The notes: generated from the sequence alone by a model not told the origin. A stretch of DNA of 64,000 nt from an uncultured Hyphomonas sp. (GCA_964350465.1 CAYGKE010000004.1:20616-84615), one strand, 5' to 3'. Positions 6,536 to 29,748 are shown, counted from the first letter of the stretch. Numbers and translations: made by a program.

Positions 6536-6564
6536 TTGACCTCTGCTTATACGCGCCCTAATTT
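6536..6564 (+). promoter_or_regulatory. Putative sigma70 promoter of the CitE-MaoC operon
   Basis: TTGACC-17 nt-TAATTT; the -10 overlaps operator B. Confidence 0.55.
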
Positions 6565-6576
6565 GTCCGGACAAAT
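6561..6576. promoter_or_regulatory. Operator B copy 1 (ATTTGTCCGGACAAAT, perfect palindrome)
   Basis: Perfect 16-bp palindrome 11 nt upstream of ATG 6588; resembles HutC-subfamily GntR boxes. Confidence 0.75.
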
Positions 6577-6587
6577 CCGGATGAGTC

Positions 6588-7406
6588 ATGATACCCACTT
6601 TTCGTTCCTTGCTTTTCGTGCCAGGCGCACGGCCTGATCGTTTTGATAAAGCGGCGTCGGCTGGCGCTGATACGATTATCATTGATCTGGAAGACGCTGT
6701 TCTGCGCGCTGACAAAGTTGAGGCGCGATCAGCTTCGCTCGGTTGGCTGGCGCACCGTGAAAAGACCGTTTGCGCCGGCATACGCATCAATTCGCCGAGA
6801 ACTGCCGAGGGGTGCGCCGATATCGCCGCGCTCGCCATGTCCGGCTGCAGCCCGGACTTTGTCATGGTGCCGAAAGCCGAAACGGGCGTGGATATGGAAA
6901 TTGTCGGCGAAGCCTTGGGCGGCGGTGCCTCACTAATCGCAGTGATCGAAAGTGGACGCGGCTTGCGCCGAGCTTTTGACATTGCCCAGCAATCGGCTGG
7001 CGGTATCCTGTTTGGTGGCGCAGATTTCAGCGCAAGTGTCGGCGCAGACCTGTCAGATTGGGATGCCATGCTGACAGCGCGAGGAACAATCGCAGCAGCC
7101 AGCGGTGCTGCGGGTATCCCCTGCTATGACGTGCCTTACCTGGACATAAAAAATGACGAAGGGCTGCGCGCCAGCACTGCGAAGGCCAAGTCCCTGGGTT
7201 TCTCCGGCCGTACCTGTATTCACCCTGTACAAGTGGAGGGTGTGAACGACGTGTTTTCGCCGACCCCCGCAGAAATTGTAGAGGCCCGCGAAATTATCAA
7301 ATCCCTTAATGACTCAGATGGCGGTGCTGTCCTGCACAAAGGAAAACTGGTCGATCGCCCGATCATTCTCGCGGCGCAAAGAACACTCGCCAAGATCGAC
7401 GAATAG
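6588..7406 (+). CDS. CitE-like acyl-CoA lyase (HpcH/HpaI aldolase-citrate lyase family; citramalyl/malyl-CoA lyase type)
   Basis: RSLLFVPG, IIDLEDAV, GIRIN, VPKAE, IES, FGGADF, CIHP. Confidence 0.85.
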   Translation: MIPTFRSLLFVPGARPDRFDKAASAGADTIIIDLEDAVLRADKVEARSASLGWLAHREKTVCAGIRINSPRTAEGCADIAALAMSGCSPDFVMVPKAETGVDMEIVGEALGGGASLIAVIESGRGLRRAFDIAQQSAGGILFGGADFSASVGADLSDWDAMLTARGTIAAASGAAGIPCYDVPYLDIKNDEGLRASTAKAKSLGFSGRTCIHPVQVEGVNDVFSPTPAEIVEAREIIKSLNDSDGGAVLHKGKLVDRPIILAAQRTLAKIDE

Positions 7407-7419
7407 AGAGGCAATAGAC

Positions 7420-7941
7420 ATGGTCAAAACTGTAAAAGAGGTTGGTCCTAATCGCTACCGCGAGACCTTCGGGCGCTATTTCGAAGATTTCAAAGAAGGC
7501 GACATATACGAACACCGCCCCGGTAAGACGGTAACCGAGTATGACAATCACATGTTCACGTTAATGACGATGAACACACATCCGATGCATTTCGATGCCG
7601 AGTTCGCTGCCGCTAGTGAGTTCAAAAAGAACCTGGTCGTCTCGCCTTACACGCTGGCCTTGCTGATCGGCATGAGCGTCACCGATACATCCCAGAAAGC
7701 TATCGCCAATCTCGGTATGGACGAGGTGAAGTTCACCGCGCCTGTCTTTGCAGGGGATACGATCTATGGCGAGAGTGAAGTTCTCGGCAAACGCGAAAGC
7801 AAGAGCCGGCCAGGTCAAGGCATCGTGACCATCGTGACGCGCGGCTACAATCAGGACGGGGTGATGATCTGCACGTTCAAACGCAATATGCTGATCCCAT
7901 CAGCCGGTAACGCCGTCGAAGACAAGATAGACACATATTAG
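7420..7941 (+). CDS. MaoC-family (R)-specific enoyl-CoA hydratase, RipB/Ich-like
   Basis: GRYFEDF, DNHMFTLMTMNTHPMHFD, PVFAGDTIYGESEVL; ATG 7420 preferred over the track's 7309. Confidence 0.85.
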   Translation: MVKTVKEVGPNRYRETFGRYFEDFKEGDIYEHRPGKTVTEYDNHMFTLMTMNTHPMHFDAEFAAASEFKKNLVVSPYTLALLIGMSVTDTSQKAIANLGMDEVKFTAPVFAGDTIYGESEVLGKRESKSRPGQGIVTIVTRGYNQDGVMICTFKRNMLIPSAGNAVEDKIDTY

Positions 7942-7950
7942 GAGGCCATC

Positions 7951-9150
7951 ATGGCAGATAGTGCATACATGTCGGCAGAGGCCGCAGAAGAAGAAGCGAT
8001 CATGCTGGACGCCATCGACAAATGGCTCGAGCAGAAGGTTAAGCCGGTTGCGATGGAGCTGGAGCACGCCAACGAGTATCCGCATGCGCTGGTCGAGGAT
8101 ATGAAAGAGATGGGTCTGTTTGGCGCTCTGATCGATCCTGAATTCGGCGGCCTTGGCCTGACAGCATCGCTGTACGCCAAAATTGTCACGCGTATCTCCG
8201 AAGAGTGGATGAGCCTCACGGGTATCTTCAACTCGCATCTTATGATGGCGCAGATTGTTCAGCGTTTCGGGACGCAGAAACAGAAAGAACACTGGCTGCC
8301 GAAATTTGCGACCGGTGAAATTCGCGGCGGCCTCGCATTGACCGAACCCAATGCAGGGACCGACCTGCAAGCGCTGACCACCAAGGCAACTCGCGTGGGC
8401 GACAAATATGTTGTCGAAGGCGCCAAGACGTGGATTTCAAACGCGATTGAAGGCCATTGCGTTGCGTTGCTTTGCAAGACCGACACGAAAGCTGAACCGC
8501 GTTACAAAGGCATGTCGATCCTGATCACGCAGACCAAGATTCCTGAGACGCGCGAAGACCTGCCAGGTGTCAAGAATGGCAACAAGCTGGAGAAGCTTGG
8601 CTATAAGGGCATCGATAGCGGCGAGCTGATCTACGATAATTATGAATGCGATGCTGAGCTTTGCCTGGTCGGCGGCGAAGAAGGCAAGGGCTTCTTCATG
8701 GCGACCGGCGGCTTGGAGATTGGCCGGATCAATATTGCTGCGCGCTCGGTTGGGATTGCGCGCCGCGCGCTCAAGGAAAGTGTTGCCTATGCCCAGACGC
8801 GCAAGTCCATGGGCAAGCCGATCTGTGAGCATCAGGCGATCCAACTCAAGCTTGGTGAAATGGGGGCCAAGACCCGCGCCGCTGAACTACTCGTGGCAGA
8901 TGCGGCGCGCGCCTATGACACGGGCGAACGGATCGATATGGAGGCTGGCATGGCGAAGTATTTTGCCTCGGAGACCGCTGTCGAAGTCGCCACTGAAGCG
9001 ATGCGTATTCATGGCGGTTATGGCTACTCAAAGGAATATGTGATCGAGCGGCTCTACCGCGACGCCCCACTGATGTGCATTGGCGAAGGCACGAATGAGA
9101 TGCAGCGCATCATCATCTCGAAACAGCTGGTCAAGCGGAACCCGGTCTGA
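7951..9150 (+). CDS. Acyl-CoA dehydrogenase
   Basis: LTEPNAGTD, GAKTWISN, KLGYKG, RIHGGYGY, IGEGTNEMQR. Confidence 0.92.
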   Translation: MADSAYMSAEAAEEEAIMLDAIDKWLEQKVKPVAMELEHANEYPHALVEDMKEMGLFGALIDPEFGGLGLTASLYAKIVTRISEEWMSLTGIFNSHLMMAQIVQRFGTQKQKEHWLPKFATGEIRGGLALTEPNAGTDLQALTTKATRVGDKYVVEGAKTWISNAIEGHCVALLCKTDTKAEPRYKGMSILITQTKIPETREDLPGVKNGNKLEKLGYKGIDSGELIYDNYECDAELCLVGGEEGKGFFMATGGLEIGRINIAARSVGIARRALKESVAYAQTRKSMGKPICEHQAIQLKLGEMGAKTRAAELLVADAARAYDTGERIDMEAGMAKYFASETAVEVATEAMRIHGGYGYSKEYVIERLYRDAPLMCIGEGTNEMQRIIISKQLVKRNPV

Positions 9151-10292
9151 TGTCTGACCTGCCTCTCAAGGGCATCCGTATCCTGTCAGTGGAGCAGTAT
9201 GGCGCCGGACCGTATGGCACCATGCTGCTCGCTGATCTCGGTGCCGAGGTGATCAAGATCGAGGACCCGTCGCGCGGCGGCGATGTCTCGCGCTCCGTTG
9301 GACCATACATGCTGGGGGAGGGCGATAGTGAATTCTTCCAGACATTCTCCTATGGAAAAAAATCGGTCGCGCTTGATCTCAAGTCAGCGGAAGGTCGCGC
9401 GAGATTTGAGGCACTGGTGAAAACCGCAGATGCCGTTTCCAATAACTTACGCGGCGACCAACCGGGCAAGCTCGGCCTGACTTATGAAGCGCTGAAAGCG
9501 ATCAATCCGAAAATTGTCTGCGCGCATCTGTCGGCCTATGGCCGCAAGTCTGAACGCGCTGCCTGGCCGGGTTATGATTATCTGATGCAGGCGGAAGCTG
9601 GCTTCATGTCGGTGACAGGCGAGCCGGATGGACCGCCTGTTCGCTTTGGCCTGTCCATGGTCGACTTTCATACCGGCAGCCAGATGGCGACGGCATTGCT
9701 GGCCGGTATTCTTGGCGCGAGCCGGACCGGCGAAGGCTGCGATCTCGACGTCTGCCTGTTTGATACAGCGCTGCACCAGCTGTCTTATCCCGGCACCTGG
9801 TATCTCAATCAGGGCCATATTACCGGCCGCCTACCGCGCGGAAGTCATCCGGCGATCACGCCAAGCCAGACGGTCAAAACCAAGGATGGTTGGGGTCTGC
9901 TAATGTGCCAGACACCGAAATTCTGGTTGCTCTGGTGCGAGCTCGCAGGGGCGCAGCACCTCAATGAAGATAAGCGCTTTTCATCGATCCCGAAACGGCG
10001 TGAGAACCTCACAGCCCTCAGTGATGCGGTCGATGCAGTGATGATGGCGAAGACCACTGAAGAGTGGATGCAGGTGCTTGGCGGGCATGTGCCCTTCGCG
10101 CCAGTATTGGATGTCGCTGAGGCACTAGATAATCCGTATGTCGCAAGCGTTGAGATGACCTCGCGCGTCGATCACCCGAATACCGATACCGGCTTGCGCG
10201 CACTGTCTTCCCCTTTCCGCGTCAATGGCGATCGGCCAAAGCTCACACGCGCACCAAAGATGGGTGAACATTCAGATGAGTTGCTAAAATGA
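9150..10292 (+). CDS. Class III CoA-transferase (CaiB/BaiF)
   Basis: LADLGAEVIKIE, GKKSVALDLK, catalytic Asp in MVDFHTG. Confidence 0.9.
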   Translation: MSDLPLKGIRILSVEQYGAGPYGTMLLADLGAEVIKIEDPSRGGDVSRSVGPYMLGEGDSEFFQTFSYGKKSVALDLKSAEGRARFEALVKTADAVSNNLRGDQPGKLGLTYEALKAINPKIVCAHLSAYGRKSERAAWPGYDYLMQAEAGFMSVTGEPDGPPVRFGLSMVDFHTGSQMATALLAGILGASRTGEGCDLDVCLFDTALHQLSYPGTWYLNQGHITGRLPRGSHPAITPSQTVKTKDGWGLLMCQTPKFWLLWCELAGAQHLNEDKRFSSIPKRRENLTALSDAVDAVMMAKTTEEWMQVLGGHVPFAPVLDVAEALDNPYVASVEMTSRVDHPNTDTGLRALSSPFRVNGDRPKLTRAPKMGEHSDELLK

Positions 10293-11458
10293 AGCTGGAC
10301 GGCGTCAAAGTCCTCGATCTTTCGGCTTTCCTGCCGGGGCCGCACATGACGATGATGATGGCTGACCATGGTGCCGACGTGATCATGATCGAACCAGCTA
10401 ACGGCGTTGGCGAGCCAACCCGCCAGATTGGCGAGAAAACCGCGGACGGCGTTTCGGTGTGGTTTCGCAATATTGCCCGCGGCAAGCGTAGCTTGAAACT
10501 GAACCTCAAGGATGAAGACGGCCGTGCGCTCTTCTATCGTCTGGCGGATCAGGCAGATGTCGTGCTCGAGGCGTTCAGGCCAGGCGTCGTCAAGCGTCTT
10601 GGCGTTGATTATGAGACTGTATCAGCGCGCAATCCACGTATCGTTTACTGCTCGATTTCGGCCTTTGGCCAGGACAGTTCGCTGGCCCACAAACCCTCAC
10701 ACGATACGGGCGTGCAAGCGTTGGCGGGGCTGATCGACCTCAATCGCGGGCTAGAGGATGATAAGCCGGCCATGCCGAGCATCCCTTTTGCTGATGCCGG
10801 GGCCTCCCTCATGGCGCTCTCGGCAGTTTTGATGGCGCTCTACCGGCGCGAGAAAACCGGTCGAGGCGACTATATCGACATGGCGATGTATGACGCTGCG
10901 ATTGCCTGGACCCCGAACGTATTGGGACCAGTCTTCGCCAGGGACGAACATCGTGAGCCAAAACAAATGCGCAGTTTTGGTGGCTCCGCTCTGACCAATC
11001 TTTACGAAACTTCGGATGGAGAGTTCATCGCATTCAGTGGGCCAGAACTGAAATTCGCAACCAATCTTCTAAGCGCGCTTGGCCGCCCTGATCTCATAGA
11101 GATCGTCAAGCTTGAGCCAGGCCCTGATCAGGTCCCGTTGCGCGCGTATTTGACAGCCACTTTCAAGTCCAAGCCTCTAGCGCATTGGCAAGCGTTTCTG
11201 GAGCCGCTTGACTGCGCCTGGTCGTGGGTACGTAGCCTGAAGGATGCTTTCGATGATCCGTTCACGGCAGAACGCGGCATGGTTTTTACCGATACTCAGG
11301 GCCATCGCCATATCGGCCCACCGATCAAGTTCAGAGATGAACCACCAAAGCCGGACACTCGCGTCCCTGGCTTCGGGGAAGACAGCCAGGCCATTGCTGA
11401 CGAGGCCGGACTTACCCCCGAAGCCATTGCCGGCCTCAAAGCCAAAGGAGTGATCTGA
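10289..11458 (+). CDS. Class III CoA-transferase (CaiB/BaiF), second paralogue
   Basis: GVKVLDLS, DHGADVIMIE, EAFRPGV, FADAGAS. Confidence 0.9.
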   Translation: MKLDGVKVLDLSAFLPGPHMTMMMADHGADVIMIEPANGVGEPTRQIGEKTADGVSVWFRNIARGKRSLKLNLKDEDGRALFYRLADQADVVLEAFRPGVVKRLGVDYETVSARNPRIVYCSISAFGQDSSLAHKPSHDTGVQALAGLIDLNRGLEDDKPAMPSIPFADAGASLMALSAVLMALYRREKTGRGDYIDMAMYDAAIAWTPNVLGPVFARDEHREPKQMRSFGGSALTNLYETSDGEFIAFSGPELKFATNLLSALGRPDLIEIVKLEPGPDQVPLRAYLTATFKSKPLAHWQAFLEPLDCAWSWVRSLKDAFDDPFTAERGMVFTDTQGHRHIGPPIKFRDEPPKPDTRVPGFGEDSQAIADEAGLTPEAIAGLKAKGVI

Positions 11459-11910
11459 TGCCAATCTATCCAAAGGACATGTTTGCCGCGACGCGAGCAC
11501 ACGAGGGTATTTGGGAAGGGACCTACACGCACATTGACGCTGACGCGCAGATCGAAGATCAGCACCGCACCCGGGTTGTCTGCGAGTTTCCTGACGATGG
11601 CGGCGATGTCTTCTATCGCCAACACATTCACTTCATGTGGGATGATGGCCGCACGCGCGATGACATGTTCGAAGGCATCCCGCGAGATGACAAGCTCTGG
11701 TATGACACACCGGCTTTCAAGGGACCGAGCTGGGAAACCCATGATGGTCTGATCATGCTCAATCTGCAACGTAAGGATGAGCCTGGGTCAAACTTCTTTG
11801 AAGTGATCATGATGGGTGATACCGGCAAACATCGCGCACGGACCTGGCACTGGTTCAGGGATGGCAAGCTGTATCGCCGTACACTTTGTAACGAGACGAG
11901 AGTTGGCTAA
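11458..11910 (+). CDS. DUF3598-like beta-barrel protein
   Basis: HEGIWEGTY start, all-beta pattern, RARTWHWF...RTLCNETR end; translationally coupled. Confidence 0.55.
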   Translation: MPIYPKDMFAATRAHEGIWEGTYTHIDADAQIEDQHRTRVVCEFPDDGGDVFYRQHIHFMWDDGRTRDDMFEGIPRDDKLWYDTPAFKGPSWETHDGLIMLNLQRKDEPGSNFFEVIMMGDTGKHRARTWHWFRDGKLYRRTLCNETRVG

Positions 11911-12285
11911 CTATCCAGCATGCTGATCAAGTAGGATCTGGTTTCCATCCGGATCAACAATCATGCAGGAGCCGGGCCCGGACCCGGCCTCGTCGACTTC
12001 GCTGACCGGCGTAATTCCGCTGGCTTTCAGACGCTTTTGAATGTCGCGCACATCTTCGAATGAATCCAGCGGCTGTGCGTCAGCGTCCCAGCCCGGATTG
12101 AAAGTCAGGATGTTCTTCTCAAACATGCCTTGGAACAGGCCAATCGTCGCTGTGGGTGATTTCAGGATGGCCCAGTTGTGAGCGGTCTGGTCATGATACA
12201 TCGAAAAGCCCAATGTCTCGTAGAACTTGATCGAGGCAGTCAGGTCTTTCACAGCAAGGCTGACGGAAAAATTTCCAAGCGACAT
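11911..12285 (-). CDS. VOC family protein
   Basis: SLAVKDLTASIKFYETLGF; DPDGNQILLDQH. Confidence 0.85.
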   Translation of the reverse strand: MSLGNFSVSLAVKDLTASIKFYETLGFSMYHDQTAHNWAILKSPTATIGLFQGMFEKNILTFNPGWDADAQPLDSFEDVRDIQKRLKASGITPVSEVDEAGSGPGSCMIVDPDGNQILLDQHAG

Positions 12286-12302
12286 GGGCAGGCTCCTGTT
12301 TT

Positions 12303-13019
12303 CTAACCGCGGGTGCGGTCAAGGCGCATTTCATACGCGAAACGGCCAGCCGGGTGAAGGCTCTCTGAAAACAGGATGATTTTACCCTTGCTGTCGCGGT
12401 AACGACGGACCGTTCTGAGTGCGGGAAAGCCTTGATCGGTGCCTAGCCGTTTGGCTTGGCTGGCATTGAGTGCCACGGCTTCCATACGCTGCACGACGCG
12501 ATCTACGCCGACGCCATGCTTATCCTCGATCCACTCTGATATCGAGCCGGACAAACCCTCGATGGTCTCGCGGTCAGGGGAAAGATCACTTCGAATATAG
12601 ACGGCCGTGATAGCCTGAGGTGCCTGGTCCTTAACCCGTCTGAATCCGATCAGCTGCTTGTAAGCGCCGGTTAGGCCAAGCCGGTCCAGTGTTTCATCGT
12701 CAGCATCTTGCATGACCGTAACTTCGAACTGGGAGTCTCGGGCATATTGCAGGATCGAGTCGAAGTCGCCGATCGGTTGGGCGAAGGCCGGTGCAGATGC
12801 TGCGGAGACAACTGTTCCTGCGCCCCGGCGGCGCTCGATCCTGCCTTCTTCGACAAGGATCCTAAGTGCATCACGCGCGGTATGCCGAGACACCGAATAG
12901 GTCTCGCAAATCTCCATTTCCGTCGGCAGCGCGTCGCCCGGTTTCAGCTTGCCATTCACAATCTGAGCCCGGAACTTGTCAGCCATTTCCCGGTAGCGTG
13001 GTTGTTTCGGCTTAGCCAT
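12303..13019 (-). CDS. GntR family regulator (HutC subfamily, UTRA domain) #1
   Basis: PRY..MAD, LPTEMEI, VSRHTARDAL wHTH; C-terminal UTRA. Confidence 0.9.
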   Translation of the reverse strand: MAKPKQPRYREMADKFRAQIVNGKLKPGDALPTEMEICETYSVSRHTARDALRILVEEGRIERRRGAGTVVSAASAPAFAQPIGDFDSILQYARDSQFEVTVMQDADDETLDRLGLTGAYKQLIGFRRVKDQAPQAITAVYIRSDLSPDRETIEGLSGSISEWIEDKHGVGVDRVVQRMEAVALNASQAKRLGTDQGFPALRTVRRYRDSKGKIILFSESLHPAGRFAYEMRLDRTRG

Positions 13020-14284
13020 TACATTGCTTTCCTGATTGCCGCCCAGTCGCTGGCAAGATGATCTCGGTGCGCTGGATCGGCGATAGAGATAAGTGACTTG
13101 GCGCGCTGGTCCAGCGATTTGTGAGCTAGGCTGGCGATCCCGTGCTCTGTGACCACAGTGTCGATATCGGCTCGCGTAATGGAGGTGGCATCTGGTGCCA
13201 GGCGAGGGACGATGCGGCTGATGCTCCCGCCTTTTGCGGTTGAGGTGAGCGCGATAATCCCTCGCCCCTGTGGTGAAGCTGCGGCGCCGCGCAGGAAATC
13301 GACCAGACCACCCGTGCCCGAGACCTGTCGCCCGCCGATGAATTCTGCGTTGACCTGGCCGAAAAGGTCGATCTCGATACAGGAATTGATCGCTTTGAGT
13401 TTGGGAATGGCGGCCAGTGTTGTGATCGAATGCGTATAGCTGACGGGCTGAAAGCGAATGCGGCGATCATGCGCGGCGCGCGCGTACAGCGTGTCAGTTC
13501 CGATCGCGACCCCGGTTGTAATTGCGCTTGGATAGTCAGCGATGGCCCCCGCATCGAGTAGGCCCAGTATAGGGTCAGAGATCATGCCAGCATGGATGCG
13601 CAGGTCGCGGCGATCACGCAGCGCTTCAAGGACCGCTTGCTGAACATTGCCAAGCCCGAATTGCAACGTGTCGCCATCGTCAATCAGTGATGCGATGTGT
13701 CTGCCAATCGAGGCGAAGGCAGGCGGCAAGCTTTTAGGTGGAACCTGAACCAGCGGCGTATCGTCCTCAGCAACATGTGTAAAGCGCGATAGTGGGACAT
13801 GTGGTGCATCTTGCGGCGTTTTCAGATGCGGGTTGATCACGGCCATACAGCGCACATCCTGTCGCTCCAGAACGGCACCGGCAAAATCAGACGAGACACC
13901 AAGGCTGACACGGTTGCCAGCGTCAGGCGGGCTGACCATGATGATTGCGCCATGCAGGGGCGTTGTCTCCAGCCATGTCCAGCTTTGCGTATAACTAAGC
14001 GGCAGAAAGTCGGTTTTGCCAGCTTCGAAACTGCCGCGTAGTGCTGGCGAGAGAAAAATGCTTTCTGCCCTCGCATCCTCGTGCAGGTTTGCCCAATCCG
14101 TCTGGTTGACACCTGGGATCCATATCCCGAGAAAAGTCACACCCGCAGCAAGCTGAGGCACTTGCCTGAACGCGTCCGCGACGGCCAACGGCTCACCGCT
14201 ACAGCCGCCAACATATAGCCTTGCTTTGCCTGGCAGGCTCAAACGGAACTCTTTTAGCGTGGATAAGAGCGGCGGATGCGTCAT
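13019..14284 (-). CDS. Acetyl-CoA hydrolase/transferase family (4-hydroxybutyrate CoA-transferase/RipA-like)
   Basis: DGDTLQFGLG, EIDLFGQVNAE, GTGGLVDF, VVTEHG. Confidence 0.88.
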   Translation of the reverse strand: MTHPPLLSTLKEFRLSLPGKARLYVGGCSGEPLAVADAFRQVPQLAAGVTFLGIWIPGVNQTDWANLHEDARAESIFLSPALRGSFEAGKTDFLPLSYTQSWTWLETTPLHGAIIMVSPPDAGNRVSLGVSSDFAGAVLERQDVRCMAVINPHLKTPQDAPHVPLSRFTHVAEDDTPLVQVPPKSLPPAFASIGRHIASLIDDGDTLQFGLGNVQQAVLEALRDRRDLRIHAGMISDPILGLLDAGAIADYPSAITTGVAIGTDTLYARAAHDRRIRFQPVSYTHSITTLAAIPKLKAINSCIEIDLFGQVNAEFIGGRQVSGTGGLVDFLRGAAASPQGRGIIALTSTAKGGSISRIVPRLAPDATSITRADIDTVVTEHGIASLAHKSLDQRAKSLISIADPAHRDHLASDWAAIRKAM

Positions 14285-14346: not shown

Positions 14347-14362
14347 AAATGTCCGGACAAAT
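14347..14362. promoter_or_regulatory. Operator B copy 2 (AAATGTCCGGACAAAT)
   Basis: 14/16 match to copy 1, in the divergent gap between the CoA-transferase/GntR#1 operon and the prpD operon; next to a TAAAAT -10-like hexamer. Confidence 0.7.
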
Positions 14363-15650
14363 GCAATCACAAACGATCTTGCAATCCCTGGCCAAGCATT
14401 TGGCACGGCCTGTGGATATTGCGACGGTCGACCGTGCGCGATTGCATCTGACTGACTGGATCGGGTGTGCGGTTGCCGGAGCAAAAGAGGTGCCGGGCGA
14501 GGTGCTGCGGCGCACCAAGGGGCAGGGCCGAAGCGGGGATGCCTTTTACTGGGGCGGTTTAGGCAATATTCTTGAAATGGATGATGTTGACAAACGCGCC
14601 ATCCTGCATCCCGGACCAGCTATTATTCCTGCCGTTTTGGCGCTTGCCGAAGGTCACAATGGCAACGCACTGTTGACTGCCATCGTTCGCGGTTATGAGG
14701 CGACGATTAGGCTCGGCCGCGCGGTCGGGCTGAGCCATTACGCTTTTTGGCATAGTACAGGCACGTGCGGGTCGATCGGAGCTGCCGCCGCATCTGCCAG
14801 CCTTCTTGAACTCGATGAAGAACAGACTGCTCAGGCCATGGCGCTCGCCCTGAGCCAGGCCGCAGGTCTATGGCAAACCCGGCACGAGACCTTCAGTATG
14901 GGCAAGCAATTGCACACGGCCCATGCGGCGCGGGCAGGGCTTGAAGCGGCTGAACTGGCAGCTGCGAGTTTCAAGGGACCATTGTCGATCCTTGAGGGCG
15001 AGCAGGGCTTTTTTGCCGCCATGTGCCAGGGCGCAAATCCACACACTGTGTTGGCTGAGTATGAAAGCGACTGGCTGATCCATGATGTCAGCTTCAAACC
15101 GTGGCCCGCTTGTCGGCATGCCCACCCAACCATTGATGCGGCGCTTGAACTTGCTGGCCAGATTGAAGACGCAGGCAGTGACAAGATCGACGTGCGCACC
15201 TATGGGGATGCCTTGAAATTCTGTGACCGGCCTAACCCTCAAACACCGCATCAGGCGAAGTTTTCATTACAGCATGTAGTTGCCATTTGTCTGACGCGAG
15301 GCGCGCCGCAGCTTGAAGACTTTGAAATGGCGACGGTCCGCGATCCTGAGATTACCGATATCCGGGCCCGCGTGAGTGTCAGTGTCGGCGAACCCTATGC
15401 CTCGGCCTATCCCGATCGTTACGGTGCCGAAGTCTCGGCAGAGGGTAAAATTGCCAGAGTTCCGGATGCTTTGGGTGATCCGGAGAACCCCGTCACCGCT
15501 GAGCAAATTTATACCAAGGCTACAACACTTATGCAGGTTGGTGGTTTAGACGATGGCCAAGCCAAAGCGCTGATTGCGCAGGTCAATAACCTTGGCCCAA
15601 ACGACAGCGCCGCGAATCTGTTGAAGGCTGTGCGGGAGGCGCTGACATGA
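14361..15650 (+). CDS. MmgE/PrpD family protein #1
   Basis: LEMDDV...HPG, KQLHTAHAA, SFKPWPACRHAHP; start 14361 (or 14349). Confidence 0.88.
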   Translation: MQSQTILQSLAKHLARPVDIATVDRARLHLTDWIGCAVAGAKEVPGEVLRRTKGQGRSGDAFYWGGLGNILEMDDVDKRAILHPGPAIIPAVLALAEGHNGNALLTAIVRGYEATIRLGRAVGLSHYAFWHSTGTCGSIGAAAASASLLELDEEQTAQAMALALSQAAGLWQTRHETFSMGKQLHTAHAARAGLEAAELAAASFKGPLSILEGEQGFFAAMCQGANPHTVLAEYESDWLIHDVSFKPWPACRHAHPTIDAALELAGQIEDAGSDKIDVRTYGDALKFCDRPNPQTPHQAKFSLQHVVAICLTRGAPQLEDFEMATVRDPEITDIRARVSVSVGEPYASAYPDRYGAEVSAEGKIARVPDALGDPENPVTAEQIYTKATTLMQVGGLDDGQAKALIAQVNNLGPNDSAANLLKAVREALT

Positions 15651-17020
15651 CGGATATGGTATCTGCCTTTGTTCACCATGGTCTGACGGCGCGCTATGAA
15701 GCCATGCCCGAGGCGGCGCGTATAGCTGCTCAAACCTATCTACTGGATTCACTTGGCGTCGGGATTGCCGGGGCCGTCGTTCCGTTGACGCATAATGTAC
15801 GTGCGTCGGCGGCTGAGTGGGCCGGTTCCGGCGACGCCTGGGTCTGGGGTCAGGGCAGCTTTCAGACAACACCGGCTAATGCTGCTTTTATCAATGGCTT
15901 TCAGATTCATTGTCAGGAGTTTGACTGCGTTCACGAGCCCGCTGTTGTGCATCCAATGGCGACGATTCTTGCAGCCATCATGGCCGAAGTGGACGGTAGC
16001 AATGCGAAGGTCAGCGGCAAGGAGCTCGCAATGGCGCTAGTCGTTGCGGCAGACCTCGCCACTGGTATCGGTGTGTCAGTAACCAGCCCGATCAAATTCT
16101 TCCGCCCTGCCAATGCCGGCATCTTTGGTGCGACACTCGGTATCTCGCGGTTGCGTAGCTTCACTGCAGAGCAGACAAAAGACGCACTCGGCTATGCGCT
16201 GGCTTTCTGTTCCGGCACCATGCAGGCGCATGTCGAAGGCAAACCTGCTCTACCGATCCAGATTGGAAATGCCGCACGCGGCGCGATCATGGCGTGCGAT
16301 CTTGCCCGCAATGGCATACCGGGTCCGCATGACAGTCTGGAAGGTCCGTTTGGTTATTTCAACTTGTTTGAGGATGAATCTAATCCCACAGAAGTAATCG
16401 CGTCACTCGGCAAGACCTGGCGAATTGCCGAGGTCAGCCACAAACCCTTCCCCACCGGCCGAGCCGCGCAGGGCGGTATCGTCCTGATGCAAAAACTCCG
16501 CGAGCAGGGCACGCGCGCTGATGATATCCAAAAGATAACGCTGACGGCACCGCCAATTATCAAACGTCTGGTTGGACGCCCTCTGAAAGCTGGTATGGGC
16601 GTCAATTATGCCCGGCTCTGTTTTCAGTATTCCGGTGCCGTAGCGCTGATAAGCGGCAATGTCGGCCTGGATGACTTCAGTGAAGCGGCACTGCGCGACC
16701 CGGATGTTCACGCGCTTGGCCAGAAGATCGAAGTGATTGATGATGGTTCAACAAACCCCGCTGCCTTTAAGCCGCAAGTTGCGGTTGCGACGCTTAAAGA
16801 CGGCCGCTTGGTCGAGGCGCGGATTGATGCGCTCTATGGGTCGCCATCTGATCCGATGACGCATGAGGCGCATCTCACCAAGTTCCGTGCCTGTGTCGAT
16901 TTCGGGTTTGGCGCCCCAAGATCAGACATCGCTGCAAGACTCATTGCGCTCACCGAAACACTCGAAACCCTTGAGGATGCGCGCATCCTCTCCCGACTAT
17001 CTGCTGGACAGGAGGCCTGA
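15647..17020 (+). CDS. MmgE/PrpD family protein #2
   Basis: QEFDCVHEPAVVHP, LEGPFGYF, HKPFPTGR, GSPSDPM. Confidence 0.88.
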   Translation: MTDMVSAFVHHGLTARYEAMPEAARIAAQTYLLDSLGVGIAGAVVPLTHNVRASAAEWAGSGDAWVWGQGSFQTTPANAAFINGFQIHCQEFDCVHEPAVVHPMATILAAIMAEVDGSNAKVSGKELAMALVVAADLATGIGVSVTSPIKFFRPANAGIFGATLGISRLRSFTAEQTKDALGYALAFCSGTMQAHVEGKPALPIQIGNAARGAIMACDLARNGIPGPHDSLEGPFGYFNLFEDESNPTEVIASLGKTWRIAEVSHKPFPTGRAAQGGIVLMQKLREQGTRADDIQKITLTAPPIIKRLVGRPLKAGMGVNYARLCFQYSGAVALISGNVGLDDFSEAALRDPDVHALGQKIEVIDDGSTNPAAFKPQVAVATLKDGRLVEARIDALYGSPSDPMTHEAHLTKFRACVDFGFGAPRSDIAARLIALTETLETLEDARILSRLSAGQEA

Positions 17021-17022
17021 CC

Positions 17023-21888: not shown

Positions 21889-21891
21889 GTT

Positions 21892-24155: not shown

Positions 24156-24163
24156 GCGATCCT

Positions 24164-24193
24164 CCGATTTAAAAGATATATCATTTAAATCGG
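24164..24193. promoter_or_regulatory. Operator A copy 2 inside a 30-bp palindrome (CCGATTTAAAAGATATATCATTTAAATCGG)
   Basis: 14 of 15 pairs complementary; lies between the GntR#2 stop and the RBS of the membrane protein/FAD oxidoreductase/ALDH/crotonase operon. Confidence 0.8.
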
Positions 24194-24212
24194 TTTAGGC
24201 GAGACCCTTGCG

Positions 24213-25010
24213 CTATTTTTCGGTCTTCCAGTCTGTTTGAGCGGCATCATTACGGGTCAGGCGCATGTGATATTCGAAACGATCAGCGCGGTAATGGGCC
24301 GTAATGTCCTGAACCGGTCGTCCACTCTTGTCGCTCATGACGCGGTGGATGCGTAGCAAAGGTGACCCGGGCGCAACGCCGAGCGTTGCTGCAACCGCTG
24401 GTTCCGCTGCTGCCGCTGAAATGCTTTGTTCGGCTTCGACAGGTCCATGACCTGCCTTTTCCAGAAGCTTGATCAAGGACTGGCTTGTCAGCTCGGACTC
24501 CTCATAACCTTGAGCGACATCATAAGGTATATAGGTTATAAGATGAGAGAAGGGTTCGCCGTCCATCGACCTTACGCGAACGATCCTCTGCACACTTTCC
24601 CCGGCTTTCAGCTTCAGCGCGCCGCGAATGGCAGGACTGGCTGTGCCCACTGTGCAATCGAGCAGTTTAACGCTGGTCTCAACACCCATGCGCGTCAGTC
24701 CGTCGATCATTGTCTCAAAGCTGCCTTTGATCATCGACCCGTTGGCATCATAGGTGACGACGGTACCAATGCCCCGTTGACGTCTGACCAGACCGGCGAC
24801 AGCGAGTTCGTTCATCGCGCGCTTTACAGTGATCCGCGAAACGCCCAGCATTTGCGTTACGTCCTGCTCGGCTGGCAGATGATCACCATGCGCGAGGCCA
24901 CCATCGAGGATTTTCTTGCGCAGAATATCATAGATCTGCTGGTATAGCGGCGTTCCTGATTTCTCGTCGATCTGGCTGGGTTTGAGTTTCAGCATGGGAG
25001 TCCGGGCCAT
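24213..25010 (-). CDS. GntR family regulator (HutC subfamily, UTRA domain) #2
   Basis: PLYQQI, LPAEQDV, VSRITVKRAM; C-terminal UTRA ending YRADRFEY. Confidence 0.9.
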   Translation of the reverse strand: MARTPMLKLKPSQIDEKSGTPLYQQIYDILRKKILDGGLAHGDHLPAEQDVTQMLGVSRITVKRAMNELAVAGLVRRQRGIGTVVTYDANGSMIKGSFETMIDGLTRMGVETSVKLLDCTVGTASPAIRGALKLKAGESVQRIVRVRSMDGEPFSHLITYIPYDVAQGYEESELTSQSLIKLLEKAGHGPVEAEQSISAAAAEPAVAATLGVAPGSPLLRIHRVMSDKSGRPVQDITAHYRADRFEYHMRLTRNDAAQTDWKTEK

Positions 25011-25086
25011 TGTGTTTGTCTTGCCAGTTCAGTTGATTCAGAGTGCAAGGACACAGATGCCTGCAATCTAGGCGCGAGTATAGAGG

Positions 25087-25509: not shown

Positions 25510-25518
25510 GGTCGTCTC

Positions 25519-26634
25519 CTATTTCAAAACGCCGCTGGCAACGAGGCGATCTATGACAGCTTGCTGCTGGGCGATAGCGTCAGCGCGTTCAATCATCTGA
25601 GCATCAGGTGTGCGATTGGCCGGCGCATGATTGGCTTGCCCGTATCCGCTTGCAAAAGCCGCATTAGGAAGGCGCGACAGCGTATTGGTCATGCCTGTCT
25701 TACGCCGGGTTTCCCGCAGCGCGCCAATGTCCAATACGGCATTTGCGTTCAGGGTTTCGCCCTGGTTCGCCTCTGCGAGACTGCGGCCATACCAGTCGAG
25801 CACGATTGACATGCCGTCAGTTGATGCGCTGGGCACTGGCGTACCGATTATCTCGGCGCTGTTGGCGGAAACGACGTAGGCAATATTCTCGATTGCACGT
25901 GCCTTCTTTGTAATGTGCTTTGGTGTCAGCGTGGGCGCGCCGACTTCGCTGGTTGGGTGGCAGAATATCTCCGCGCCCTTAAAGGCCTGCATCCGGGCAA
26001 TCTCTGGATAGAGAATTTCTTCACTGGCAATCGATCCAAGCACGCCAATTTCCGTGTGTGCGACCGGGAAAACGGCATCCTCGCCATAGATATCCAGATA
26101 CTTGTCCCAGACGTCATAAGGGCTTGGTGTGTACAGTGAAATCATCCTGCGATAGCGCAGCACAATATCGCCATTAGGGCCGTAGATCACGTTCGATTGG
26201 AAATAGAGATCCGGAAAGTTCGGATCAGTCTCGTAATGGTTGGAGCAAAGATAGATGCCAAAAGTCTGGGCGAGGCTTGCTAGCTTATCTGGAAAAGCGC
26301 CTTCCATGGGAATAGCGGCCTTATCCTGCCATTCTTCGCGCGTTTCCCCGAGTGGGAACCCAGTCATCCAGTATTCAGGCAAGACAACCAGTTTTACATC
26401 ATAGCCATTGAAGCCTTTCAGAAAGCCCCGGGCTGAGCCGATTTGGCCCCGGACACGGCCAATTGCCAGCTCTATTCGTGCGTGTGCGTCTTCAATCGTG
26501 CTGTCCTGATTGACCGCATCGCAAACAGTTTGAAGGGCAAGAGCGGTATAGCGCATTGATGGGTTTCCTTGGGCGAGAACGGGAGCAGCTAAAGTCGCCG
26601 CTCCGGCACTGAGAAGAAGTTCACGGCGGGTCAT
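25519..26634 (-). CDS. Nitrilase/carbon-nitrogen hydrolase-fold protein, Tat signal, non-canonical triad
   Basis: MTRRELLL..VLA-Q Tat signal; LVVLPEY; YRR in place of YRK; IASEEILYPE in place of ICYD..FPE. Confidence 0.8.
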   Translation of the reverse strand: MTRRELLLSAGAATLAAPVLAQGNPSMRYTALALQTVCDAVNQDSTIEDAHARIELAIGRVRGQIGSARGFLKGFNGYDVKLVVLPEYWMTGFPLGETREEWQDKAAIPMEGAFPDKLASLAQTFGIYLCSNHYETDPNFPDLYFQSNVIYGPNGDIVLRYRRMISLYTPSPYDVWDKYLDIYGEDAVFPVAHTEIGVLGSIASEEILYPEIARMQAFKGAEIFCHPTSEVGAPTLTPKHITKKARAIENIAYVVSANSAEIIGTPVPSASTDGMSIVLDWYGRSLAEANQGETLNANAVLDIGALRETRRKTGMTNTLSRLPNAAFASGYGQANHAPANRTPDAQMIERADAIAQQQAVIDRLVASGVLK

Positions 26635-27533
26635 GAGGCGTCCTGAAATGTGCGTATACTATCAGCGGCGGTCATTAGCTTTAGGCCTGTGCTTGTAGCG
26701 AGTGCATTGAGGATTTTACGTACGGCATGTATTCGAAACGGCTGCCCAAGCACATAGGGGGTCATCGTGAAGGCGAGGGCGGCGGCGCCCTCTTTATCGT
26801 GCAGGTCGACGCTATACTGCGCCGCTTCGATAATCTGCTCAGCCCAATCGTCTTCGGATTGCGAGCGATCAAGCAAGAGTTTGAAATCGCCAAGCTCGCC
26901 ATAGTGGGGCAGCGCGGTGATCGAACCGTTTGCTGTTCTCATAGCAAGCGGACGCTGGTCGGCCTCCCAGTCGAGTACAGTATTGAAACCTGCCTCAGTG
27001 AGGAGATCGAGCGTGCGATAGCTCTCGTTTCGCGCCGGGCTCATCCAGGTCGTGGCATCTGGGAACACTGATCGCGCATCGGCGATGAGCGCTCGCTCTT
27101 CAGCCTCGCTCAGGCCATCATGATGAATATGTGCGGTAGATACACCGTGGGCCGCGACCTCGTGCCCGCCCGCTTTAATGGCATCGATGAGTGGCGGATA
27201 GCGTTTTGCAATCTCGGCATCTACCGCGAACGTGGCCGTCACGCCCGTTGCCGAAAATTCGCGCATTAGGCGAAAAATGCCGATACGGTTGCCGTAATCC
27301 CGCGTCGTGAAATGGCGCAGATCCGGATAGGGCGTCTTCATCGCGCCGGGGTGTTTGAACGGCACGGAAGGCGGGTTCAGAGGAAAAAATTCGACTGGCA
27401 CAATGATTGTGGCGATCGCTTTGGTCCCATCTTTCAAGTAAACCGGCGCGCGTCTGTCGGCAGGCTCCCAGCCATAGTGCGGGTTATCCATGCCAGGCTT
27501 ACGGTGTGGGTAAATCAGATAGTCATCAGGCAT
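26631..27533 (-). CDS. PuuE-like CE4 hydrolase paralogue (conserved His apparently replaced)
   Basis: RDYGNRIGIFRL, EVAAHG, MTPYVLGQPFR; ATG 27533 follows the upstream stop, preferred over the track's 27668. Confidence 0.8.
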   Translation of the reverse strand: MPDDYLIYPHRKPGMDNPHYGWEPADRRAPVYLKDGTKAIATIIVPVEFFPLNPPSVPFKHPGAMKTPYPDLRHFTTRDYGNRIGIFRLMREFSATGVTATFAVDAEIAKRYPPLIDAIKAGGHEVAAHGVSTAHIHHDGLSEAEERALIADARSVFPDATTWMSPARNESYRTLDLLTEAGFNTVLDWEADQRPLAMRTANGSITALPHYGELGDFKLLLDRSQSEDDWAEQIIEAAQYSVDLHDKEGAAALAFTMTPYVLGQPFRIHAVRKILNALATSTGLKLMTAADSIRTFQDAS

Positions 27534-27537
27534 TTTG

Positions 27538-28482
27538 CTAGGAGATTGGGACAAAGCCGGTTCCTCCCGTCGCGACACCTCGGGCTGCGACATCCGCCAA
27601 TGTCTGATCCCAATAGTTCTCGCAGTAGAATTCAGCGATCTCTGCGCCCGTTGTGAACCAGACATCATCGCGGTGGCTGCAAATATGCCTCAGCGCCTCT
27701 TCAAACACGCGCAGGCGATGCGGTTGGCTGACCAGATAGGCGTGCAGTGGGATACACATCACGGTTCCGGACTGTTCGCCTTCCTTCAGCAACTGATCGA
27801 AATGCTTGATCAGCAGATCTGTGTAGCGCTGCGGGCTCCAACCCTGGACCGAATATGTGATGACATCATTCACTTCCAGCGAGTAGGGCATCGACACCAG
27901 CTTTCCGGTCTTGGTCTTGATCGGCTGGGGCTGATCATCCTGGAACAGATCGCACGTATACCAGAAATCATGCTCGGCGATCAGGTCCAGCGTATGCTCG
28001 GTATGCGTCAGCGCCGGGGCGAGATAGCCGCGGATACGTTTGCCGGTTGCACGTTCAACTGTTTCGATACTGTCTGTTAGTACCGCCACTTCCTGCTCTG
28101 GCGACATGCCATACGAATAACGCGTGTTATAAATGCCGTGGGAGAAGAACTCCCAGTTTCTTTCGTTCACGGCTTCGATGATTTCCGGGTGGTGATCAAC
28201 AAGCCCCACCGAGAGCGAGATACTCCCGCGTAGATCATACTTGTCGAACAGATCCATCAGCCGCCAATGACCGACCGTATTGCCCCAGGTGCGCTGTGAA
28301 TAGGCGACGACATCCGGGTTGCCACGTGGCCAGCCGGGACGCTTGTTATTATGTGGCGGCTGAAATTCGTAATACTCTATGTTTGGTGCGATCCAGAAGG
28401 CGAGCTTCTTGCCGCCCGGCCAGACGATCTTGGGCCGTCCTTCATAGGGCCAATAATCATAGAGGTTGGGATCAGCGTGCAT
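27538..28482 (-). CDS. PuuE-like CE4 hydrolase
   Basis: WPGGKKLAFWIAPNIEYYE, EFFSHG, IPLHAYLVSQPHR. Confidence 0.85.
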   Translation of the reverse strand: MHADPNLYDYWPYEGRPKIVWPGGKKLAFWIAPNIEYYEFQPPHNNKRPGWPRGNPDVVAYSQRTWGNTVGHWRLMDLFDKYDLRGSISLSVGLVDHHPEIIEAVNERNWEFFSHGIYNTRYSYGMSPEQEVAVLTDSIETVERATGKRIRGYLAPALTHTEHTLDLIAEHDFWYTCDLFQDDQPQPIKTKTGKLVSMPYSLEVNDVITYSVQGWSPQRYTDLLIKHFDQLLKEGEQSGTVMCIPLHAYLVSQPHRLRVFEEALRHICSHRDDVWFTTGAEIAEFYCENYWDQTLADVAARGVATGGTGFVPIS

Positions 28483-29177
28483 CAGCCCTGATACCTCGCA
28501 ATCGCCTCATGTACCTCGCTGACCGGCACAACGTCGGCATATTTGATCAGCAAGTCGGTCAGGTTCGCAAAGTGATAGCTCTCATGCTTGTCGGCGACGC
28601 ATTCCTCCGGGACGATGGTGCGGTAGCCATAACTTAAACTATCAACCGCAGTAGCGCGCACGCATCCTGACGTTGAGCCGCCGGTAACAACAACCGTGTC
28701 GACCTTGTGCCATGTCAGGAAACTGTTGAGCGGCGTTTCAAAGAAAGCGGACGGCATACGTTTGGTGTAGACCGCATCCACAGCCGGATCGATGGTCAAA
28801 CGATCATCAAACGCGGTGCGCTCTGAGCCATATTTGATATTCTGCAGGCTGTCCGGCGTATCCGTTCGCGTGCCCCAGACGCCGGCATCAGCGGCATTGT
28901 CCATATAGGCAACATGCGTCCAGATCACTGGCAGACCTTTTGAACGTGCGGCGTTTGAGATGGCATCAATATGCTCCATCTGACGAGGGTCCGTGATGTA
29001 GGCGGTCTTGTAGAGATCAGGCCGTGTGTACGCTTTTTGCGGGTCAACATTCACGATAGCGAGCTTGTCGCCAAACCCGAACCGCGCGCGCATAGGGTTG
29101 GAGCGAACCTCTTCGAATATCTCACGCGCTGTTTTGTCTGAGGTTACCATGGTCGGTTGGGACATATCGTGGGTCAT
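28482..29177 (-). CDS. Isochorismatase/cysteine hydrolase (maleamate amidohydrolase / N-carbamoylsarcosine amidase-like)
   Basis: Asp-Lys-Cys triad: VNVDPQ, TKRMPSAFF, STSGCVRATAVD. Confidence 0.88.
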   Translation of the reverse strand: MTHDMSQPTMVTSDKTAREIFEEVRSNPMRARFGFGDKLAIVNVDPQKAYTRPDLYKTAYITDPRQMEHIDAISNAARSKGLPVIWTHVAYMDNAADAGVWGTRTDTPDSLQNIKYGSERTAFDDRLTIDPAVDAVYTKRMPSAFFETPLNSFLTWHKVDTVVVTGGSTSGCVRATAVDSLSYGYRTIVPEECVADKHESYHFANLTDLLIKYADVVPVSEVHEAIARYQG

Positions 29178-29208
29178 AGGAATTCCGCTTGCATTCTATC
29201 TCTCATTC

Positions 29209-29224
29209 AAATGATATATCTTTT
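29209..29224 (-). promoter_or_regulatory. Operator A copy 3 (AAATGATATATCTTTT on +)
   Basis: Exact reverse complement of copies 1 and 2, in a divergent intergenic region. Confidence 0.75.
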
Positions 29225-29253
29225 TGCGCAAGTCTAGCCAATTGGAGGAAGTT

Positions 29254-29688
29254 ATGAAGAGTTTTATTCTGGGTGCGATACTTGGCTTGGCAGGCGGGGT
29301 TGGTATTGCTGCTTGCGTTGGCGTTCAGCCGCAGATCGCGCAAGGACAAGAAACTGCGCCAGAACCACCAGCTTACATGATCGTGCTTGGTGAAGTGCAT
29401 GACCGCCCGGCCTTTATGGAAGGGTACGCAGCCAAGTTACCGCCCATCTACGAGCAATATGGGGGTCACTATATCGCAATTGGGGGAGGTCCAGGCATCG
29501 AAGTCCTCGAGGGTGACTATGCCCCGCCGAGCTATGTGATCAGTAAATGGGAGAAGGCGCAGGACGCGCGGGATTTCTGGAACAGCCCGGAATATGACGC
29601 GCTCAGGCGCGCACGCATCAACAATAATTGGGGCACATTCGACGTCCTATTGGTGAACGGTCTCCCAAACCCTGCTGCCGCTGAATGA
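29254..29688 (+). CDS. DUF1330 family protein with signal/lipoprotein peptide
   Basis: GGAGG-ATG 29254; GIAA-C; AYMIV, YGGHYI, VLEG, FWNSPEY..LR. Confidence 0.75.
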   Translation: MKSFILGAILGLAGGVGIAACVGVQPQIAQGQETAPEPPAYMIVLGEVHDRPAFMEGYAAKLPPIYEQYGGHYIAIGGGPGIEVLEGDYAPPSYVISKWEKAQDARDFWNSPEYDALRRARINNNWGTFDVLLVNGLPNPAAAE

Positions 29689-29732
29689 AGCGTGCTGCCT
29701 CAGGTGCGGCAGATTTACAACATTGCCGCATT

Positions 29733-29748
29733 AAATGACCGGACAAAG
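29733..29748. promoter_or_regulatory. Operator B copy 3 (AAATGACCGGACAAAG)
   Basis: One substitution in the TGTCCGGACA core; abuts the -35 of the receptor promoter. Confidence 0.6.

Follow-up and report, generated by a model that had tools for sequence, protein, structure and literature searches.

A conserved palindrome as the predicted operator of a HutC-type GntR regulator in Hyphomonas and other marine Alphaproteobacteria

The characterised members of the HutC subfamily of GntR regulators, NagR, DasR, HutC and PhnF, are repressors that are released by an effector. NagR (YvoA) of Bacillus subtilis and DasR of Streptomyces act on 16-bp palindromes in which GT and AC are 4 nt apart, as in the dre site TGGTCTAGACCA, and a palindrome of the same length, ATTTGTACGTACAAAT, is the operator of AraR in Bacillus subtilis. 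For the itaconate gene clusters of the Ict/Ich/Ccl type (RipABC of Yersinia and Salmonella; PA0878-PA0883 of Pseudomonas aeruginosa) the known regulators are of the LysR type, and a search of the literature gave no GntR regulator acting on itaconate catabolism. Here we describe a palindrome, termed operator B, and a HutC-type regulator, GntR#1, that lie among genes of the same families as the itaconate clusters in a 64,000-nucleotide stretch of DNA from an uncultured Hyphomonas sp. (GCA_964350465.1 CAYGKE010000004.1:20616-84615). The whole stretch is referred to as the window; it corresponds to C4:20616-84615 in a source genome of 3.28 Mb, 206 contigs and 56.5% G+C. Sequence comparisons make it likely that operator B is the operator of GntR#1, acting as a repressor that an effector releases from the DNA.

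GntR#1, a protein of 238 aa, consists of a GntR winged helix-turn-helix (PF00392, residues 9-71, E = 2e-19, 69.5 bits against a cut-off of 27) fused to a UTRA domain (PF07702, residues 105-227, E = 5.6e-15, 55.8 bits against 23.8). This is the domain arrangement of NagR/YvoA (E = 3.2e-17 over residues 7-235) and DasR (E = 1.7e-11), the nearest solved structures (2WV0, 4U0V, 4WWC and 4ZS8 being the best structural matches), with low overall similarity. Scores against the named NCBIfam equivalogs stay below their cut-offs for HutC (89.3 against 220), PhnF (83.7 against 156.8), PhnR (75.9 against 296.75) and TreR (61 against 211.95), and GntR#1 is thus outside every one of these named orthologous groups. 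There are 277 homologues at E <= 1e-30, and among the best 120 of them the source names are only 'GntR family transcriptional regulator', with one 'hypothetical protein'.

HutC-subfamily operators follow the palindromic pattern NyGT-N4-ACNy, with GT and AC 4 nt apart (PMC4494728). Operator B is a 16-mer, WWWTGTCCGGACAWWT, with the core TGTCCGGACA, and its 12-mer TTGTCCGGACAA fits this pattern, including the spacing of GT and AC, with CCGG in the centre where MTAK is common. By its two domains, the type of its proposed operator and its structural relatives, GntR#1 can therefore be assigned to the HutC subfamily of the GntR family. Set against the operators of NagR and DasR, operator B differs in the centre (CCGG instead of TAGA or TATA) and in the arm (TTGT instead of TGGT), and the predicted targets of GntR#1 belong to coenzyme A (CoA)-dependent organic-acid catabolism, together with a TonB receptor, instead of to amino-sugar metabolism. 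The AraR operator is identical to operator B in length and in the outer arms ATTTGT/ACAAAT and differs in the centre (ACGT against CCGG); the GntR-type N-terminal domain of AraR, known in complex with DNA from structures 4EGY, 4EGZ and 4H0E, matches GntR#1 at E = 2.8e-8, whereas the effector domain of AraR is of the LacI/GalR type and that of GntR#1 is UTRA.

Predicted sites of the actinobacterial regulator IolR, ATGTCCGGACAT in Beutenbergia and TTGTCCGGACAT in Catenulispora (PMC4494728, supplementary file 2; Suvorova et al. 2015), have nearly the same core as operator B. The recognition helix and wing of IolR (SRPTARRAL...RRRGAGT) are also closer to those of GntR#1 (SRHTARDAL...RRRGAGT) than to those of GntR#2 (SRITVKRAM...RQRGIGT), the second GntR/UTRA protein of the window. 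As a matter of family fit this likeness is suggestive only, and it implies no orthology, as IolR belongs to a different phylum and governs a different regulon, that of inositol catabolism. A literature search for the motif itself returned p53 half-sites and the mycobacterial regulator MscA, and was uninformative for the GntR family. MscA box2 of Mycobacterium smegmatis, TTGTCCGGACAA, is a regulator binding site demonstrated by electrophoretic mobility shift assay (PMC11711680); its 12 bases are identical to those of operator B, in an unrelated organism and in a copper- and redox-responsive antioxidant cluster.

The window holds three copies of operator B where an earlier note on this DNA had reported them: ATTTGTCCGGACAAAT at site 1, a 16/16 palindrome; AAATGTCCGGACAAAT at site 2, a 14/16 match; and AAATGACCGGACAAAG at site 3, a 12/16 match, degenerate in this genome. 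Allowing for one mismatch at most, the window has seven occurrences of the 10-mer core against 1.85 expected, and seven or more occurrences were found in 0/100 shuffles. Operator B is also found beyond the window. Five sites in the 3.28 Mb have at most two mismatches to the 16-mer, namely sites 1 and 2, CGTTGTCCGGACAAAT at C4:7545, AATTGTCCGGACAAAT at C33:25472 and ATATGTCCGGACATAT at C6:62533. Site 3, with four mismatches, is by sequence alone indistinguishable from about 120 chance matches in the genome, and support for it must therefore be independent. A position weight matrix built from orthologous sites returned exactly the six intergenic sites as its top six genome matches, site 3 ranking sixth, followed by a gap in score below which matches lie within long reading frames. 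Because the training set also held window sites 1-3 and the site at C4:7545, this ranking is partly circular; only conservation, together with the ranking, validates site 3 as a putative operator.

Orthologues of GntR#1 with 73-77% identity are present in 13/36 genomes of the same genus, and further orthologues with 60-68% identity came from a contig collection. Every intact orthologous cluster carries both perfect cores, those of sites 1 and 2, and their two positions do not differ. Within the 16-mer, pairs of sequences are on average identical to 1.00 at site 1, 0.98 at site 2 and 0.91 at site 3, against 0.55, 0.66 and 0.60 outside it. The 19-mer CTAATTTGTCCGGACAAAT, which precedes the lyase operon, does not vary among 13 orthologous promoters and also occurs in Parvularcula and in a metagenomic locus at 55% identity; ATGTCCGGACAAAT, between the divergent genes at site 2, is invariant in 13 sequences. 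At site 3, TGACCGGACAAA is invariant in 10 genomes and ATTTGACCGGACAAAT is read in most relatives, 9/9 by one count, which marks the window copy as a degenerate version of a genuine, conserved site. By these alignments all three promoters carry the palindrome as a non-coding element under conservation. Furthermore, perfect copies of TTGTCCGGACAA occur in 13/13 same-genus genomes with the regulator as against 4/23 without it (Fisher p = 1e-6). One of the four exceptions is an incomplete genome in which the cluster is present but cut by the end of a contig, in two others the 12-mer falls within reading frames, and in the fourth (G006) the 12-mer could not be placed, no flanking open reading frame (ORF) matching this genome.

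Homologues of GntR#1 outside the genus were compared at 13 loci (36-60% identity) that span Hirschia, Parvularcula and at least four further alphaproteobacterial families. The core TGTCCGGACA lies beside the regulator in all 13: it is perfect in ten, has one core mismatch in two, and in the remaining one (G257) is perfect but downstream only, before the neighbouring gene, while some 225 bp upstream of the regulator there is a core with one mismatch. In g7, a genus of a different family, CTTTGTCCGGACATAT is found at 4/4 loci between the CoA-transferase-GntR pair, whose regulators are 42% identical to GntR#1, and a PrpD-ligase-amidase block. The loci of Hirschia maritima (60%), Parvularcula lutaonensis (58%) and a metagenomic homologue (55%) have the same arrangement, and in the latter two a perfect ATTTGTCCGGACAAAT also precedes the hydratase/lyase operon. 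Hyphomonas sp. FCG-A18, like Hirschia maritima and Parvularcula lutaonensis a cultivable relative, shares the arrangement. A class-wide sample of 400 genomes contributed another six loci with homologues of 36-44% identity, from families f9, f22 and f62, and a site with 0-1 core mismatch was found in five of these six, upstream of the regulator operon or in the divergent region between it and a PrpD-like gene. The CoA-transferase-GntR pair is kept in 10/13 outside-genus loci, and its divergence from the PrpD-ligase-amidase block across the operator is seen again in g7, Hirschia and Parvularcula.

Thus, the operator stands in the regulator's own promoter region in all same-genus clusters and in 12/13 outside loci, G257 being the exception, and no DNA-binding protein other than GntR#1 is shared by all of these neighbourhoods. 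As a control, the perfect core was found in 0/54 etfB and acyl-CoA dehydrogenase loci from other genomes. The earlier note had proposed that GntR#1 binds operator B and, from the 14/16 copy upstream of its operon, that it regulates its own synthesis. Conservation, co-occurrence and the distant loci give that proposal strong in silico support, and the autoregulation geometry was confirmed, recurring elsewhere at 36-60% protein identity. The TGTCCGGACA palindrome is very probably the docking site of the neighbouring GntR/HutC-type regulator.

The sequences show that the sites and the regulator exist, are conserved and occur together; from this we infer how the protein binds, that it represses, where the promoters lie and what releases it. 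The result would be a common type of bacterial switch, in which a HutC-type local repressor acts through a conserved palindrome that also serves autoregulation, and it changes nothing in what is known of GntR mechanism. A GntR#1 dimer would contact each TTGT/ACAA half-site with one of its winged helix-turn-helix domains, following the GT-N4-AC arrangement typical of the subfamily. At site 1, the two hexamers of the putative TTGACC-17-TAATTT promoter that the earlier note had described as overlapping the perfect palindrome are present. TAATTT overlaps the first 4 operator bases, the transcription start is expected about 7 nt 3' of it, and both hexamers are invariant in relatives, with TTTGACCT upstream and TAATTT unchanged in 13 orthologous promoters. 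From this geometry site 1 would be a classic case of occlusion, the operator covering the -10 hexamer and the start so that RNA polymerase would be excluded from the lyase operon.

A single operator at site 2 would serve two transcription units. It overlaps the start codon of the PrpD-like gene and precedes the CoA-transferase-GntR#1 operon by 63 bp, such that its occupancy would shut off both the PrpD-like operon and the regulator's own synthesis (negative autoregulation). The start at 14361 that had been assigned to the PrpD-like operon was not borne out: the ATG there is specific to this genome and kept in 0/12 aligned orthologous regions from relatives, whereas the ATG inside the operator (ATG TCC GGA CAA, encoding MSGQ) is kept in all relatives. 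Upstream of this ATG, a conserved GGTTCACTC block is followed after 17 nt by TAAGCA/CTAGCA, a pair that would set the transcription start at or next to the ATG and would yield a leaderless or near-leaderless mRNA.

At site 3, operator B abuts a predicted TonB receptor promoter, TGGACA-16-TATCAT, whose -10 hexamer lies inside a copy of a distinct motif, operator A (AAAAGATATATCATTTG; consensus AAA(A/T)G(A/G)TATATC(A/T)TTTG). The two centres are 31 bp (three helical turns) apart, without an indel in 10 genomes, and uptake through the receptor would need relief of both repressors. Within the window the two operators occur together only here (29733-29779). Outside it they recur at a second TonB-dependent receptor, where the fourth operator B site (C4:7545-7560) lies 13 kb left of the window and 2 nt after TTGACA. 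In nine genomes compared at the second receptor, operator A is present in 9/9 and a B-type site in 6/9 (one with two core mismatches). The B-type site usually stands 52 bp from operator A and covers the -10 position that follows a conserved TTGACAC; four relatives have the 52-bp spacing, whereas this genome has 67 bp and one other has 48 bp. It is doubtful, though conceivable, that the TonB receptor promoters are controlled by the two HutC-type paralogues as a two-input gate of fixed phase, with uptake of one imported compound only when signals from both the upper (hydrolase/redox, operator A) and the lower (C5-dicarboxylyl-CoA, operator B) parts of the pathway are present. On that reading the B-A spacing, where it is fixed, suggests that the two repressors may contact each other or bend the DNA jointly.

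Operator A occurs in at least ten copies from C4:237 to C4:50400, eight of them exact GATATATC and two GGTATATC variants at receptor promoters. They are located at 2137, 24175, 29207 and 29768 in the window and at C4:237, 3536, 6024, about 7615, 18340 and 20241 to its left. At least ten copies within some 50 kb of contig C4, as against a handful elsewhere in the genome, mark a large regulatory island. The protein that binds operator A is presumably GntR#2, and no A-like site was found within 1.5 kb of the GntR#2 orthologues in g7. Operator A sits before the hydrolase and redox blocks, and the division seen earlier, in which operator B marks the CoA/dicarboxylate genes and operator A the hydrolase and redox genes, agrees with the mapped positions of both motifs.

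Release of GntR#1 would follow from the binding of a small molecule of the pathway to the C-terminal UTRA domain. The inducer would most likely be a branched C5-dicarboxylate (itaconate, mesaconate or citraconate), an amide precursor or a CoA ester. Judging by gene content only, what is imported could be an N-heterocyclic imide, for instance a maleimide-type tetrapyrrole breakdown product. If so, GntR#1 would sense a substituted maleate- or itaconate-type intermediate or its CoA ester, the latter being an unusual ligand for a UTRA domain.

Several observations weigh against GntR#1 as a repressor acting through operator B. Regulator and sites descend together as a single cluster in this genus, and their co-occurrence there cannot separate GntR#1 from GntR#2. 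One 68%-identical orthologue (L074), in a rearranged locus, has no operator B within 10 kb; the same locus also holds a CoA-transferase remnant and a receptor fragment. The proposed sigma-70 promoter at site 1 matches the consensus at only 8/12 positions, short of the 9/12 threshold of the scanner, a consensus scan around site 2 gave nothing above threshold, and a search for the promoter of the CoA-transferase-GntR#1 operon identified none. The occlusion geometry therefore rests on conservation of the hexamers and not on mapped starts. Lastly, operator B is centred near -43 from the predicted receptor start, a position compatible with activation as well.

This position is one point in favour of GntR#1 binding operator B without being a pure repressor, either activating at the TonB receptors, and possibly at its own operon, or cooperating in phase with the operator A protein. 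The 31-bp spacing of B and A in 10 genomes and the 52-bp spacing in four relatives at the second receptor, both near whole helical turns, would suit cooperation. However, the start from which -43 is counted is that predicted by TGGACA-16-TATCAT, and the -35 hexamer predicted there in the window is not conserved in relatives; the second-receptor spacing departs from 52 bp in this genome and in another; the operator at site 1 overlaps the -10 hexamer and the start; and the characterised members of the subfamily are repressors. We regard activation or phased cooperation as improbable.

Another possibility is that operator B is bound by GntR#2 or by an unlinked factor, with GntR#1 binding operator A or some other sequence. 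The genes for GntR#1 and GntR#2 share one conserved island; linkage in this genus therefore does not distinguish them, and their separation rests on the more distant loci. GntR#2 homologues also exist in g7, and in one distant locus (L197) both homologues are neighbours. Exclusion of GntR#2 by its absence accordingly failed, the g7 genomes carrying an orthologue, and rests instead on the lack of operator B beside it. The g7 orthologue lies about 150 kb from the operator B locus, its orthology supported at four g7 loci by a conserved YCII-GntR pair as in the window, and operator B with at most one core mismatch was found in 0/5 GntR#2 homologue loci from g7 and a sister genus. GntR#1 homologues, on the other hand, have the site alongside at every outside-genus locus, several of which lack a GntR#2 homologue within the locus examined, and copies of operator A flank the GntR#2 block. 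Binding of operator B by GntR#2 or an unlinked factor is, on these grounds, decidedly improbable, and GntR#1 is retained as the likely binder.

That anything but protein binding has kept the palindromes constant, be it a coding constraint at site 2, a leader RNA hairpin, or a restriction-modification or repeat element, is scarcely credible, for although site 2 overlaps codons 1-5 of the PrpD-like gene and the site 1 RNA can fold, all synonymous positions of site 2 are invariant while the next codons vary freely, the palindrome alone folds with 0 and -1.2 kcal/mol at sites 2 and 3, and the same 16-mer recurs in non-coding DNA of many genomes at differing distances from genes. The PrpD-like proteins are only 57-67% identical among relatives, so the invariance of site 2 points to a DNA element and not to the protein. 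As for site 1, GTCCGGA of the operator can pair with a downstream YYGGAT (6566-6582), and the RNA fold GUCCGGA...YYGGAU reaches -9.4 kcal/mol in the window; most relatives could form a comparable pairing. This pairing is probably incidental, because a start 7 nt after TAATTT would leave the left arm of the hairpin untranscribed, and YYGGAU is at the expected Shine-Dalgarno position. The RNA hairpin reading was rejected, as folding is not shared among the sites.

The predicted targets of GntR#1 and the positions of the features discussed are collected in Table 1. Operon 1 contains enzymes related to those of itaconate and mesaconate degradation, and the HpcH lyase, MaoC hydratase, acyl-CoA dehydrogenase, CoA-transferase, glyoxalase-fold and MmgE/PrpD families of this locus are common to the known itaconate clusters. 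Unlike in those clusters, the module is joined here to amidase, ligase and hydrolase genes, and the scores stay below the NCBIfam equivalog cut-offs (RipC_Ccl, 220.8 against 375; RipB_Ich, 230.3 against 340; succinyl-CoA:mesaconate CoA-transferase, 224.4 against 700). The relationship is one of pathway resemblance. In its listed form the MaoC/Ich-like ORF shares 98 nt with the lyase gene, and since its family match starts at residue 38, the true start is probably near 7400. On the minus strand, the operon at 14284-11911 consists of the CoA-transferase, GntR#1 and glyoxalase-fold genes, the stop of the first overlapping the start of the second by 1 nt. The glyoxalase-fold gene is missing at that position from the syntenic same-genus loci compared, being present only in L074, and is thus not a core member of the regulon.

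Table 1. Positions of the operators, promoter and genes discussed, in window coordinates
Feature	Position	Strand	Basis or remark
Putative promoter TTGACC (6536-6541), 17-nt spacer, TAATTT (6559-6564)	6536-6564	+	Read from sequence
Operator B site 1, ATTTGTCCGGACAAAT	6561-6576	.	Overlaps -10 hexamer and expected transcription start of lyase operon
Target operon 1 (predicted), six genes	6588-11910	+	Pfam, NCBIfam; gene order kept in relatives
HpcH/Ccl-like lyase	6588-7406	+	Best NCBIfam match RipC/Ccl
MaoC/Ich-like hydratase	ORF 7309-7941	+	Best NCBIfam match RipB/Ich
Acyl-CoA dehydrogenase	7951-9150	+	Pfam
Two family III CoA-transferases	9150-10292, 10289-11458	+	Best NCBIfam match succinyl-CoA:mesaconate CoA-transferase
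DUF3598-like protein	11458-11910	+	Pfam
Glyoxalase-fold gene downstream of GntR#1	11911-12285	-	Pfam
GntR#1, HutC subfamily (GntR winged helix-turn-helix and UTRA)	12303-13019	-	Proposed operator B binder
Acetyl-CoA hydrolase/transferase-family CoA-transferase	13019-14284	-	PF13336; first gene of GntR#1 operon
Operator B site 2, AAATGTCCGGACAAAT	14347-14362	.	In 64-bp divergent region; overlaps PrpD-like ATG (14349)
Target operon 2 (predicted)	14349-19691	+	Pfam, NCBIfam
Two MmgE/PrpD-family proteins	14349-15650, 15647-17020	+	Pfam, NCBIfam
PaaK-like ligase	17023-18417	+	Pfam, NCBIfam
Amidase	18414-19691	+	Pfam, NCBIfam
GntR#2, second GntR/UTRA protein	24213-25010	-	Pfam; in minus-strand block
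Operator B site 3, AAATGACCGGACAAAG	29733-29748	.	Upstream of TonB-dependent receptor
Operator A copy, AAAAGGTATATCATTTGT	29764-29781	.	Covers predicted -10 TATCAT; centre 31 bp downstream of operator B
TonB-dependent receptor, target gene 3 (predicted)	29840-32002	+	Pfam Plug, TonB_dep_Rec_b-barrel

A gene for a DUF1838 protein is found near the second TonB receptor (C4:6048-6953). It is present in 13/13 same-genus genomes with GntR#1, in 0/9 same-genus genomes without it and in 4/4 genomes of g7, where a perfect operator B lies directly upstream of it, and the DUF1838 protein is likely to be an unrecognised component of the pathway. The core regulon would then comprise the CoA-transferase, PrpD-like, PaaK-like ligase, amidase and Ccl/Ich-like genes together with the TonB receptor and the DUF1838 protein, and would tie together the genes of a catabolic route ending in itaconate- or mesaconate-like chemistry. 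The prediction thus offers a precise regulator-operator pair for an uncharacterised GntR/HutC orthologous group that is spread in marine Alphaproteobacteria, in Hyphomonas/Henriciella, Hirschia, Parvularcula and more distant families. The operator B motif could be used for regulon annotation in genomes and for finding the inducer, and it could underlie a biosensor for a branched C5-dicarboxylate.

An island recurs in Parvularcula (L199), in a metagenomic relative (L200) and in the window at 26631-29688. Alongside the C5-dicarboxylyl-CoA module, it contains polysaccharide-deacetylase-like, isochorismatase, amidase, CpeT/DUF3598, HapK, DUF1330 and short-chain dehydrogenase genes. This gene content is the ground on which an imide may be the substrate.

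Two further sites outside the window, both with a perfect core, are that at C6:62533 upstream of etfBA and that at C33:25472 upstream of a long acyl-CoA dehydrogenase gene. These genes were considered as conserved members of the regulon and rejected, as 0/25 etfB loci and 0/21 orthologous dehydrogenase loci in relatives have the site. Both sites are peculiar to this genome, in which the whole upstream regions are replaced, and relatives lack them whether they carry the regulator or not. They are genome-specific candidates that may reflect a recent expansion of the regulon to recruit electron-transfer genes, or chance. A separate palindrome, TTGAC(G/C)YTAACGT(C/T)AA followed by GGTAAGCCTTG, lies upstream of etfB (C6, about 62590-62606) and is conserved there across the genus, in about 20 relatives; another regulator of acyl-CoA metabolism probably uses it as its operator. 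A third inverted repeat, GTGA-N8-12-TCAC (for instance GTGATATAATTATCAC), occurs just upstream of operator B in loci L087-L095 of relatives, between the DUF1330 stop codon and the operator, and is degenerate in the window (about 29690-29725); it could be a terminator or another binding site.

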